64,000 nucleotides of DNA, taken from NCBI RefSeq assembly GCF_044324875.1, contig NZ_CP172185.1. The stretch is one strand, 5' to 3'. Origin of the DNA: Escherichia coli (GTDB lineage Bacteria; Pseudomonadota; Gammaproteobacteria; Enterobacterales; Enterobacteriaceae). The notes below the pieces were generated by a model. It was not told where the DNA came from and made no database searches. It saw only the letters and a list, made by a program, of their open reading frames with translations. The position numbers were made by a program, and so were the translations under genes. Positions 23,636 to 24,766 of this stretch are shown here, one piece after another (the first letter of the stretch is position 1; each line of letters starts with the position of its first letter).

Positions 23636-24766
23636 ATGTCGACTCTGTTTACGATTAATGCCTGCAAGTCGTTTGGTTGCCGTAATTTAGGGCAGCCAAC
23701 ATCGACAGATTATAGCTGGCCCGACTATCGACTGGGTTATCCGGCATTGCACTGTCGGGCATGTGGCAGTTACCCGCCGTTGTTTGACGAGCAACAATTT
23801 CGTGACTGGTTGACAGTTCACTTATCTACTTTTGCAACAGAGAAAGGCCATTTTTGCCCGGTATGTTATGGCACAGAGACGATTTGTTATGGTCACAATC
23901 CACAGGGTTCGCAACGCATTCAATGCCGTAACTGCAAAAAAGTATGGACACCCAAACAATATCAGAAAGAAATAACGCCTCCCGAAATAATCGAAACGGT
24001 TGCTTTTCTCGTGCCATTTCAGGGAGTCAGCAGCGGGCAGAAACTGTATGTTTTAATCAGTTTTGATGCTCTTCGCGGTAATATTCTTCATCTTTCTACT
24101 AATTACACGCAGCATCAGGCTGGAGAAAGTCTGCATTATCGATACAGAGGAAATGCAGAACCAGAGTTACACGACAATAATATTGTACAACGCGTTGATA
24201 TGCGCGAAGCACAATTTCTACGCCGCAGTCAGTTTGATGAAATTCAGTATGGCAGCGCAGCGCTCAAGCGCAATGCCAAAGGCATTATTCTGCGTCCGGT
24301 TATCACAGCGCACGGGCATTTTAGAGTACTGAATATTTTATTCCCTACAGTAAAAACACATGTAATTTCACACGAGTGTTTTTTAAGAGGTGCGATTATT
24401 ACGGCCTGGGCAGAACTGTTTCGCCAACAGCAAGGTGAGATTTGGTTTATTGAAGAGGAAATAGCTGACTATACCGATAATACGCCCTGGCGTTTTCAGG
24501 GAACAACTTATCACGGCTGGTGGAAAAATCAGTGGCAACTTTGGGGTCAGGGCAAAAATCGTAAAATGGTATGTGCATTAACAGGCGGAAATAACAGCAA
24601 AGCTGAAATGCTCTCTTTCGCAACCAGCAGACATTTTATCGACTGGCTACATAAACAAGCAGTATTTACTCACAGCACCCCGCTTTCCGCAGGGCGCGTT
24701 ACGCAAATACTGCTTTCTCTGGCTCAGGATTACAACAACTGCGCCAGCCGGTTGATATCCGACTGA
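23636..24766 (+). CDS. Cys-rich protein with N-terminal zinc-ribbon motifs (transposase InsA-like signature), C-terminal domain of unknown function
   Basis: 376-aa ORF; Cys pairs C10x4C15, C40xxC43, C74xxC77, C97xxC100; segment CPVCYGTETICYGHNPQGSQRIQCRNCKKVWT resembles IS1 InsA-type zinc ribbon (from memory); 3' end overlaps metL 3' end antisense by 37 nt. Confidence 0.7.
   Translation: MSTLFTINACKSFGCRNLGQPTSTDYSWPDYRLGYPALHCRACGSYPPLFDEQQFRDWLTVHLSTFATEKGHFCPVCYGTETICYGHNPQGSQRIQCRNCKKVWTPKQYQKEITPPEIIETVAFLVPFQGVSSGQKLYVLISFDALRGNILHLSTNYTQHQAGESLHYRYRGNAEPELHDNNIVQRVDMREAQFLRRSQFDEIQYGSAALKRNAKGIILRPVITAHGHFRVLNILFPTVKTHVISHECFLRGAIITAWAELFRQQQGEIWFIEEEIADYTDNTPWRFQGTTYHGWWKNQWQLWGQGKNRKMVCALTGGNNSKAEMLSFATSRHFIDWLHKQAVFTHSTPLSAGRVTQILLSLAQDYNNCASRLISD

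Follow-up and report, generated by a model that had tools for sequence, protein, structure and literature searches.

A putatively exapted DDE transposase-like protein with an InsA-type zinc finger adjoins nucleotide-scavenging genes in Escherichia coli and other Gammaproteobacteria

Introduction

Eukaryotic host genes that arose by domestication of DDE transposases are well documented; accounts of such domestication in bacteria are, to our knowledge, rare, and no bacterial example emerged from the literature that we searched. The best recent case of a bacterial transposon enzyme exapted by its host, TldR, derives from a different enzyme, TnpB: TldRs are nuclease-dead TnpB homologues that serve as RNA-guided transcription factors, having lost catalysis, become fixed beside specific host genes and come to regulate those genes (10.1101/2023.11.30.569447). 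Among insertion sequences (IS), IS1 encodes InsA, a DNA-binding transcriptional repressor that acts through a zinc finger together with an HTH (helix-turn-helix); specific DNA binding in IS1, including binding to the inverted repeats, depends on the HTH as well as on the finger (PMC12428005).

Here we describe a 376-aa protein encoded in a 64-kb stretch of E. coli DNA (contig NZ_CP172185.1; hereafter the window), on whose family our search found no literature. Compared with IS1 InsA and InsAB', the family shares an N-terminal C4 finger, which in most relatives precedes an HTH, and the key residues CPxC ... QR..C..C.K.W are common to both. It differs in having an extra N-terminal zinc ribbon, in being encoded by a single ORF with no frameshift, and in a body of ~260 aa that contains a beta insertion and has no detectable InsB similarity (hhalign probability 0.3%), InsB itself having ~140 aa; furthermore, the window gene lacks inverted repeats, occurs as one copy and is fixed beside host genes, and the window protein lacks the HTH. 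The closest known folds are DDE transposases with insertion domains, ISCth4 (IS256/Mutator family, PDB 6xg8) and Tn5 (PDB 1mm8), at 4-16% identity, and the cores of TnsB/MuA and retroviral integrases are also named among them; in contrast to ISCth4 and Tn5, the window family has neither conserved acids on the catalytic-aspartate strands nor transposon ends. Like TldR, it combines a conserved, apparently inactivated fold with a conserved neighbourhood. Its ancestor, however, would be a DDE transposase instead of the RuvC-type TnpB, Rfam reveals no guide RNA here, and its regulatory role is one that we infer.

Nucleoside catabolism (deo, udp, tsx, nupC, nupG, cdd) is controlled by CytR, DeoR and CRP. 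The window family accompanies the same classes of genes (5'-nucleotidase, Tsx, nupC, deoCABD, nucleoside phosphorylase), with CRP-type sites in the promoters, but is unrelated to LacI or DeoR by sequence or fold and would be an additional regulator.

Results

The initial annotation of this DNA, made from the letters alone, had reported an ORF of 376 aa at 23636..24766 (plus strand), and the ORF list and the RefSeq annotation confirm it exactly. The ORF begins with ATG, and its RefSeq entry in a 100%-identical E. coli O169:H41 chromosome is WP_001306640.1, a 'hypothetical protein' that NCBI names either so or 'cytoplasmic protein'. The cysteines listed earlier (residues 10, 15, 40, 43, 74, 77, 84, 97 and 100) are all seen in the translation, and the segment CPVC-x15-QRIQC-RNC-KKVWT lies, as had been claimed, at residues 74-105 (nt 23855-23950). 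The InsA motif with which this segment had been compared is also correct: an InsAB' sequence that matches NCBIfam transpos_IS1 at 245 bits reads CPSC-x16-QRYLC-SHC-RKTWQ.

Zinc ribbon 1 (residues 8-48; 23657..23779, plus strand; C10, C15, C40, C43) is delimited by family-wide cysteine conservation and by AF2 strands; its motif is N-x-C-K-x3-C ... H-C-x2-C-G, and the model places short beta strands at 26-30 and 37-40. No profile in the Pfam or NCBIfam libraries matched it, and as far as sequence can tell it is specific to the family. Zinc ribbon 2 (residues 74-105; 23855..23950, plus strand; C74, C77, C97, C100) is of the InsA / IS1-IS1595 type by its profile matches. In an alignment of 52 relatives (20-80% identity), C97 and C100 are invariant, C77 is found in 50 and C74 in 41, and C84 is not conserved; C10, C15, C40 and C43 are kept wherever the N-terminus is present (48-49 of the 52 sequences). 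Because it is conserved across these 52 relatives, the cysteine pattern goes beyond chance.

For the window protein alone, profile searches give weak homology of ribbon 2 to the InsA / IS1-IS1595 finger: NCBIfam IS1_IS1595_Zn is matched with E 2e-4 and 21.8 bits (below the cut-off of 28) and Pfam Zn_ribbon_InsA with E 0.023, under the curated threshold. At the family level the homology is clear. Zn_ribbon_InsA reaches E<=1e-3 for 8 of the 52 family members (best 1.4e-7), the relatives P0141 and P0123 exceed the IS1_IS1595_Zn cut-off (32.3 and 31.4 bits), and hhalign aligns InsA residues 4-87 to the family profile with 96.4% probability and E 1.4e-9, which upholds the InsA-type finger proposed in the initial annotation. 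The weakest phmmer matches to the E. coli protein are, moreover, genuine IS1/IS1595 Zn-domain proteins (39.6-60.9 bits), and PHROGs gave matches at the finger level only. Other transposase models fared poorly: Zn_ribbon_IS1595 reached only E<=0.1, in 5 of the 52 members, the DDE_Tnp_IS1595 domain had no match, and transpos_IS1249 and IS256_Zn_var were matched over their N-terminal ~60-78 positions only, far under the cut-offs of 300 and 150 bits. A PDB sequence search with the single protein returned no match; C2H2 zinc-finger structures matched by the profile (Aart, ZNF568) were judged artefacts of composition and spacing in the Cys/His-rich N-terminus.

Between ribbon 2 and the core, most relatives carry an HTH-like module of ~60 aa and three helices (alignment columns ~180-270; helices 114-129, 134-141 and 145-173 in the AF2 model of a relative), which aligns to the InsA HTH by hhalign and to NCBIfam transpos_IS1 at positions 1-81/87. 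The module is missing throughout the E. coli/Citrobacter/Klebsiella/Enterobacter clade; the window protein has in its place a short linker (residues 106-117; 23951..23986, plus strand), and the alignment suggests that the HTH was deleted in this enteric clade.

The absence of a transposase body, claimed in the initial annotation, holds at the level of sequence, where everything beyond the finger lacks a Pfam, NCBIfam or PDB match, but not at the level of fold. In the AF2 model of the 376-aa protein (pLDDT 94.9, pTM 0.93), the C-terminal 260 aa are predicted to form an RNase H-like DDE-transposase/integrase fold of topology b1-b2-b3-a1-b4-a2-b5-a3. The core (residues 118-263; 23987..24424, plus strand) comprises b1 118-128, b2 135-144, b3 150-155, a1 183-196, b4 217-219, a2 221-235, b5 241-245 and a3 248-263. 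It is followed by a four-stranded beta insertion (residues 268-314; 24437..24577, plus strand) with conserved W295, W296 and W300, and by a C-terminal helical region (residues 320-373; 24593..24754, plus strand), delineated by model helices and conservation, in which S351, Y366 and N367 are conserved.

Mapped by secondary-structure topology rather than by residue-level superposition, the canonical catalytic positions read T121, R220 and E247. Among the 52 relatives, D/E make up at most 17% of any column from 116 to 129 and at most 12% from 216 to 223; column 121 is T/S in 49 and column 220 is R/K in 38. E247, after b5, is the only conserved member of the canonical catalytic D, D, E, and H246, H228, R197 and W300 are conserved as well. 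Such columns suggest that conserved carboxylates were lost on strand 1 and after strand 4, and the core is most likely catalytically inactive. A by-eye likeness of LISFDALRGNILH to the InsB segment FYAYDRLRKTVVA proved unsupported, the body scoring 0.3% against InsB in hhalign.

The location of the gene beside nucleotidase and nucleoside genes is newly found here: 5'-nucleotidase, Tsx, nupC or deo genes adjoin the family gene in 31 of 34 loci. In enterics the gene is divergent from a 5'-nucleotidase gene, and the same nucleotidase pairing is seen in other genera. The divergent partner in the window (21950..23503, minus strand; ORF and annotation) is a secreted metallophosphatase / 5'-nucleotidase paralogue of 517 aa, with matches to the UshA, CpdB and 5'-nucleotidase NCBIfam models that all fall well under the equivalog cut-offs; we rejected its identification as UshA proper, its scores being well below the UshA equivalog cut-off. 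Because its translation begins with a signal-peptide-like sequence, the partner probably acts outside the cytoplasm. Loci of the Vibrionaceae type were found by a search with a Vibrio-clade sub-alignment; in Vibrionaceae, Psychromonas and Gynuella the 5'-nucleotidase gene lies immediately upstream on the same strand in 22 of 24 loci, 6-98 nt away in the 20 measurable ones of those 22, and in Vibrionaceae the family gene occupies the downstream position in an operon with nucleotidase genes. Elsewhere it is divergent from nupC-deoCABD (P0149 and Gynuella) or from deoB-deoD-nucleoside symporter (P0141), has a nucleoside phosphorylase gene upstream (P0209), or lies near 5'-nucleotidase and Tsx genes (P0159). 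Linkage to nucleotidase and nucleoside-catabolism genes across orders, which the initial annotation did not contain, is the main clue to function.

The spacer that separates the target from the divergent 5'-nucleotidase gene (23504..23635, 132 bp) has a length of 130-133 bp in five genera or lineages. It contains a perfect CRP-core palindrome, TGTGA-N6-TCACA (23563..23578), centred ~66-68 bp from each start codon, which is the sole match in the 64-kb window (0.08 expected) and is conserved with at most two mismatches in orthologous spacers. Comparison of spacers also identified a conserved block, TTACGTTCTGAAAG (23540..23553), as a candidate operator; it hardly varies among E. coli, Citrobacter, Enterobacter and Klebsiella, the last differing by one substitution, and part of it is kept at the P0123 locus. 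An inverted repeat, CAACGA-N10-TCGTTG (23607..23628), which may be an operator or a 5'-UTR hairpin, ends 8 nt before the target ATG and has a single match in the window; since 23 of 100 shuffles also held at least one match with at most one mismatch, its support comes from conservation and not from occurrence. 'CAACGA'-like words recur in the spacers of several clades, as loose matches, and no operator motif common to the clades was found. A promoter consensus scan of the spacer gave nothing useful, and Rfam recognised no RNA family in 21400-25000. Vibrio promoters carry CRP-like sites and a LacI-type palindrome.

According to the K-12 region and the boundary alignment, an accessory islet absent from E. 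coli K-12 lies between metF and metL (21718..24729). Its GC content is 43-45%, whereas the flanks have 57-60%. Of 5426 complete E. coli genomes, 1690 carry no less than 80% of the target region. The last 37 nt of the CDS (24730..24766, plus strand) overlap the 3' end of convergent metL (24730..27162, minus strand). Here a TACAA microhomology (24731-24735, inside the Y366-N367 codons) marks a candidate deletion junction: it is supported by a DNA alignment of three sequences, one being the long-island allele from strain W224N, protein alignment stops at N367, and the window-type allele is without the original C-terminus. In the long E. coli island the target also lies upstream of two 5'-nucleotidase genes and tsx. 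Three genes (5'-nucleotidase, 5'-nucleotidase, tsx-like) seem to have been deleted downstream of the window allele, and the remaining arrangement is a regulator-like gene with one divergent 5'-nucleotidase gene.

Several observations bear on whether the gene is mobile. No inverted repeats flank it, 21500-25000 containing only internal or short chance repeats, and the islet boundaries relative to K-12 show no repeats. E. coli genomes hold a median of one and a maximum of two matching places, for a query that also included 70 nt of metL, and at most one full copy; the window has one copy. The gene is under purifying selection, with dN/dS of 0.12-0.18 against the Citrobacter, Enterobacter and Klebsiella orthologues, over saturated synonymous distances. 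The family amounts to 120 clusters in a set of 1.84 billion proteins, and every cluster sampled is gammaproteobacterial; full-length orthologues with conserved motifs occur in at least two orders, and gene and partner keep a fixed arrangement even at different chromosomal sites. Because truncated alleles are present in E. coli, the gene is dispensable in some of its lineages. Neither the protein nor its neighbour had a PADLOC match, and a known anti-phage defence system was rejected on that ground. No unrelated family matched the whole protein with confidence, and no intact DDE domain with flanking inverted repeats was found. The evidence on repeats, copy number and selection favours reading the 376-aa protein as a domesticated derivative of a transposase over reading it as a working IS; the former had been one suggestion of the initial annotation, which is, overall, partly supported.

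Discussion

We propose that a DDE transposase was exapted by its host and that its descendant, most likely inactive, became a fixed part of a gammaproteobacterial nucleotide- and nucleoside-scavenging gene module, a proposal to which we give about an even chance. The protein consists of zinc ribbon 1, a helix, InsA-type ribbon 2, an HTH (in most relatives), an RNase H-like core with its beta insertion and a helical tail, and the strands on which the two catalytic aspartates normally lie are without a conserved acidic residue. It may act as a local regulator of the adjacent nucleotidase and nucleoside genes: the zinc-ribbon module, together with the HTH where there is one, may contact nucleic acid in the CRP-dependent promoter region, and the remodelled former active-site pocket may serve effector binding or oligomerisation instead of catalysis. 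The window allele would have undergone, in addition, the deletion at the TACAA microhomology that removed both 5'-nucleotidase genes and the tsx-like gene.

A regulatory role is suggested by the divergent or operonic placement, by a spacer with conserved blocks and a CRP site, and by the precedent of InsA, and the gene, a neighbour of nucleotide-scavenging genes in numerous gut and marine bacteria, is probably their regulator. Against this, the whole enteric clade, window protein included, is without the HTH that IS1 needs for specific binding, and the CRP-like sites and LacI-type palindrome of Vibrio could explain promoter control without a protein of the 376-aa type. Furthermore, because the Vibrionaceae gene lies downstream in its operon, an accessory factor fits as well as a regulator. 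A bolder version of the proposal is possible, though we think it less likely than not: a single exaptation would have taken place in an ancestor of Enterobacterales and Vibrionales, and the pocket, in which T/S-R/K-E replaced D-D-E and conserved His, Arg and Trp residues were added, would have become a small-molecule sensor. Joined to the InsA-type finger, it would define an unrecognised class of one-component regulators that controls nucleotide and extracellular-DNA scavenging (5'-nucleotidases, Tsx, NupC, Deo) alongside CRP. A nucleoside, a nucleotide or a sugar phosphate would be a candidate ligand for such a sensor.

The protein might instead be an enzyme, the remodelled pocket (E247, H246, H228, R197, D201, T121) acting on cytoplasmic nucleic acids or nucleotides; the conserved set of E247, H246, H228, R197 and D201 could be a new catalytic site. 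One example would be a nuclease or phosphotransfer step feeding nucleotide salvage, the zinc ribbons holding the substrate. We consider this unlikely. Strand 1 has no conserved carboxylate, and the RNase H-like nucleases known to us need one there. The partner 5'-nucleotidase is probably extracytoplasmic, whereas NCBI names the 376-aa protein 'cytoplasmic protein', and no enzyme family was recognised by sequence in Pfam, NCBIfam, PADLOC, PHROGs or the PDB. The divergent enteric layout with its conserved spacer is, moreover, more typical of regulators.

Perhaps the protein does not bind DNA at all but is an accessory or post-transcriptional factor, which binds an mRNA 5'-UTR hairpin or partners CRP or CytR and uses its finger for contacts with RNA or protein. 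The enteric clade has lost the HTH yet keeps purifying selection, a hairpin-capable inverted repeat is conserved in the presumed 5' leader of the target, and the promoters already have CRP-like and LacI-type sites. However, Rfam found no RNA family, and most relatives keep the full InsA-like finger and HTH, which bind DNA in IS1 (PMC12428005); we regard this alternative as quite improbable.

It is very improbable that the gene is a decaying IS remnant with no present function, linked to nucleotidase genes by hitch-hiking. The E. coli allele without HTH and original C-terminus, the existence of truncated alleles, the two-thirds of E. coli genomes that lack the islet and its low GC would all suit decay, but they are set against dN/dS of 0.12-0.18 over saturated synonymous distances, full-length orthologues with conserved motifs in at least two orders, the recurrence of the same class of neighbour in different arrangements and chromosomal sites, and the lack of flanking inverted repeats. 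That the protein is a still-active transposase, unconventional in its catalytic site and belonging to an IS family so far unrecognised, is hardly credible, despite the transposase fold, the transposase-type finger and the entries that name relatives 'IS1 family transposase'. No E. coli genome has more than one full copy, the genomic partners are fixed, no terminal inverted repeats were found, neither strand 1 nor the stretch after strand 4 has a conserved carboxylate, the body matches IS1 InsB with 0.3% hhalign probability, and the family is very small (120 clusters in 1.84 billion).

If the exaptation that we propose is right, the family would be a clean bacterial example of it, small, gammaproteobacterial in all sampled loci and with a core both inactivated and strongly conserved, and its functional neighbourhood yields a testable prediction. 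Within E. coli, the uncharacterised accessory island is present in about one third of complete genomes, extraintestinal isolates included, and encodes as many as three paralogous secreted 5'-nucleotidases along with a Tsx-like channel, a module that could matter for the use of nucleotides or extracellular DNA as nutrients. Relatives of the protein carry conflicting database labels, among them 'IS1 family transposase', 'lactate dehydrogenase' and 'cytoplasmic protein'.

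Results

The 376-aa target CDS (23636..24766, plus strand; WP_001306640.1, "hypothetical protein" in RefSeq and "cytoplasmic protein" elsewhere) occurs once in the window, which is E. coli chromosome and 100% identical over the queried stretch to O169:H41 Res13-Lact-PER13-34. It lies in an islet of ~3 kb between metF (20678..21568, minus strand) and metL (24730..27162, minus strand), divergent from a metallophosphatase/5'-nucleotidase gene (21950..23503, minus strand). The islet has a GC content of 43-45%, against 57-60% in its flanks, and is absent from K-12 in a regional comparison; 1690 of 5426 complete E. 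coli genomes contain 80% or more of the queried stretch, with two matching places per genome at most. Truncated E. coli alleles are found among the protein clusters P0045-P0052, including C-terminally truncated forms of 302-319 aa and 328-aa forms that begin at residue 49 and therefore lack zinc ribbon 1; artefacts of contig ends or start calling may account for some of these clusters, and pseudogenes for others.

The ORF translation bears out every Cys position of the initial annotation (10/15, 40/43, 74/77, 97/100 and C84) and its CPVC-x15-QRIQC-RNC-KKVWT segment, and the InsA motif given there proved correct when checked on an InsAB' sequence scoring 245 bits against NCBIfam transpos_IS1. 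Its proposed match to transposase-finger models is unambiguous at the family level, but the window protein alone falls below curated thresholds: NCBIfam IS1_IS1595_Zn (E 2e-4, 21.8 bits; cut-off 28), NCBIfam transpos_IS1 (E 2.4e-4), Pfam Zn_ribbon_InsA (E 0.023) and PHROG 1191 "transposase" (E 3.7e-4). Searched exhaustively with phmmer, 1.84 billion representatives yielded only 120 clusters, the lowest-scoring being genuine IS1/IS1595 Zn-domain proteins. Within an alignment of 52 members at 20-80% identity, Zn_ribbon_InsA is matched at E<=1e-3 by eight (best 1.4e-7), two relatives exceed the NCBIfam finger cut-off, and the family profile aligns to InsA residues 4-87 with 96.4% probability (E 1.4e-9). 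Every member with an N-terminus keeps all four ribbon-1 Cys, and C97 and C100 never vary; C84 shows no conservation. These comparisons show homology of the target to InsA-type transposase DNA-binding modules.

The body following the ribbons had been described as having no recognisable transposase body, which stands insofar as it matches no Pfam or NCBIfam domain and fails at the level of fold. An AlphaFold2 model built on the 52-member alignment (pLDDT 94.9, pTM 0.93) places b1 (118-128), b2 (135-144), b3 (150-155), a1 (183-196), b4 (217-219), a2 (221-235), b5 (241-245) and a3 (248-263) in the canonical RNase H-like order, followed by a four-stranded beta insertion (268-314) and a helical tail. 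Among compared folds, the body scored 9.7 with a TnsB-type integrase (9bw1_M), 9.5 with the ISCth4 transposase, 8-9.2 with HIV, SIV, PFV and RSV integrases, 8.6 with Mos1 and 8.1 with both Tn5 and MuA; by sequence it shows no relationship to IS1 InsB (0.3% probability in hhalign). Mapped from fold order, the DDE positions would correspond to T121 (T/S in 49 of 52 members), R220 (R/K in 38 of 52) and E247 (D/E in all), with Asp/Glu at no more than 17% in any column across b1 (116-129) and no more than 12% across b4 and its exit loop (216-223). R197, H228 and W300 are invariant, followed in conservation by H246, W296, N367, P221, Y168, N156 and G148, with D201 at 87% D/E. Model and alignment together show a DDE-transposase fold without conserved carboxylates at two of three predicted catalytic positions; given these conserved residues, the site is remodelled and conserved rather than simply decayed.

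A nucleotide- or nucleoside-scavenging neighbour accompanies the family in 31 of the 34 loci with enough flank, the exceptions being two short contigs (L011, L027) and a partial copy (L034). Among relatives, P0149 is transcribed divergently from nupC-deoC-deoA-deoB-deoD, P0141 from deoB-deoD-nucleoside:H+ symporter, and the Gynuella gene from nupC-deoCABD; P0167 has a 5'-nucleotidase 23 nt upstream, P0209 a nucleoside phosphorylase 42 nt upstream, and P0159 a 5'-nucleotidase and Tsx inside 3 kb. The divergent partner of P0123 (40% identical to the target) is an orthologue of the window's 5'-nucleotidase (73% identical). Scanning one genome per species in Vibrio, Photobacterium, Enterovibrio, Aliivibrio, Thaumasiovibrio, Psychromonas and Gynuella (24 loci), we found a 5'-nucleotidase immediately upstream on the same strand in 22; the gap, measurable in 20 of these, spans 6-98 nt. 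C. freundii, E. hormaechei and Klebsiella sp. again carry the divergent pair, with a spacer of 132-133 bp, at metF-metL or at unrelated chromosomal sites.

Three of these loci carry further features. In Klebsiella sp. (L039) the target orthologue and the E. coli protein share 76% identity, but the divergent 5'-nucleotidase (3306-4868) shares only 54% with that at window 21950-23503, which suggests that another paralogue has the partner position here; the arrangement and 132-bp spacer are kept. At the P0159 locus (L008) an Rpn-type gene (314-1225; Transposase_31, PD-(D/E)XK), another transposase-like host gene, adjoins the 5'-nucleotidase-Tsx pair. In Vibrio hepatarius DSM 19134 (L034, 6001-6785) the match is partial, covering query residues 105-481 at 36% identity, and has no 5'-nucleotidase in its vicinity; this gene may have degraded or may be a second copy.

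The 132-bp spacer of the window holds a perfect CRP core, TGTGA-N6-TCACA (23563-23578; sequence TGTGAGAGTAATCACA), midway between the divergent genes with its centre 66-68 bp from either start codon. This exact core occurs once in the 64 kb (0.08 expected) and is conserved in orthologous spacers. Also conserved are a block, TTACGTTCTGAAAG (23540-23553), and an inverted repeat, CAACGA-N10-TCGTTG (23607-23628). In Vibrio, CRP-like sites with at most one mismatch lie upstream of the 5'-nucleotidase at 14 of 20 loci, and several Vibrionaceae 5'-nucleotidase promoters (L012-L033) have a LacI-type palindrome, GCAAACG(T/A)TTGC, immediately beside the CRP-like site, a layout resembling that of CytR/CRP. 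No operator shared between clades was found among the spacers and upstream regions compared.

A second E. coli allele, at 80-90% nucleotide identity, is present in about 570 complete genomes. In W224N (L041, NZ_CP094339.1 4892193-4899383), also at the metF-metL site, a 5'-nucleotidase gene is followed in the opposite direction by the target (374 aa, 77% identical to the window's), two further 5'-nucleotidase genes and a Tsx-like channel, with metL beyond them. The longer island, which those ~570 genomes carry, contains a second Tsx-family nucleoside channel and three secreted 5'-nucleotidase paralogues, none of which comes near the NCBIfam equivalog cut-offs for UshA/CpdB. In the window, the target CDS overlaps the convergent metL 3' end by 37 nt (24730-24766). 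When the window 3' end is aligned with two parts of W224N, the end of the target gene and the tsx-metL junction (L041 2884-3060, 7540-7680), the breakpoint falls at a common TACAA (window 24731-24735). This pentamer lies within the codons for Y366 and N367 and overlaps the stop codon of metL. Protein similarity likewise ends at N367, so that the final nine residues (NCASRLISD) are antisense metL sequence. The window allele looks like the product of a deletion at this microhomology, with loss of two 5'-nucleotidase genes and the tsx-like gene and replacement of the protein's last residues, an event we infer for an ancestor since the two alleles have diverged. The Pseudocitrobacter orthologue has a nearly identical tail (NCASLLISD), which suggests that the deletion is old or was transferred.

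Discussion

The target is a host gene under selection, apparently immobile and associated with nucleotide/nucleoside-scavenging genes in at least two orders, and very probably an exapted dead transposase linked to nucleotide scavenging. The most economical mechanism would make it a local regulator, in which the finger (plus HTH) would make the nucleic-acid contacts and effector binding or oligomerisation would fall to the remodelled core; with that role included, the full statement is about evenly balanced.

We consider the main rival, a new enzymatic use of the conserved E247/H246/H228/R197 pocket, rather unlikely. Slightly less likely again is an accessory role without DNA binding. Most relatives are 400-570 aa long, ribbon 2 being separated from b1 by a further ~60 residues that align to the InsA HTH and to transpos_IS1 model positions 1-81/87 and form three helices in the P0167 model; this segment is absent from the Escherichia/Citrobacter/Klebsiella/Enterobacter clade, the window protein included, and specific DNA binding in IS1 needs both finger and HTH (PMC12428005). 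A functionless remnant is improbable: dN/dS (Nei-Gojobori) is 0.12-0.18 against Citrobacter, Enterobacter and Klebsiella orthologues and 0.04-0.05 for the adjoining nucleotidase gene, values that are approximate because synonymous sites are near saturation. Least credible is an active transposase, whatever the fold and finger recall; no inverted repeats were found flanking the target.

The family shares its N-terminal module with IS1 and its core fold with DDE transposases, and lies outside the IS1, IS1595 and IS256 families because features that define them were looked for and not found. In concept its closest bacterial counterpart is TldR, a transcription factor exapted from a TnpB without nuclease activity (10.1101/2023.11.30.569447); the family would be a case of transposase exaptation, itself an already known phenomenon. 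Our literature searches found no paper on it, and database labels of members are inconsistent, ranging from "cytoplasmic protein" and "InsA N-terminal zinc ribbon domain-containing protein" to "IS1 family transposase", "Transposase and inactivated derivatives" and "Lactate dehydrogenase" among UniProt and AFDB50 matches. AFDB50 also holds remoter entries (20-26% identity) in Salmonella, E. coli and Serratia, such as Q8Z9N7 of S. Typhi, which suggest additional subfamilies or paralogues.
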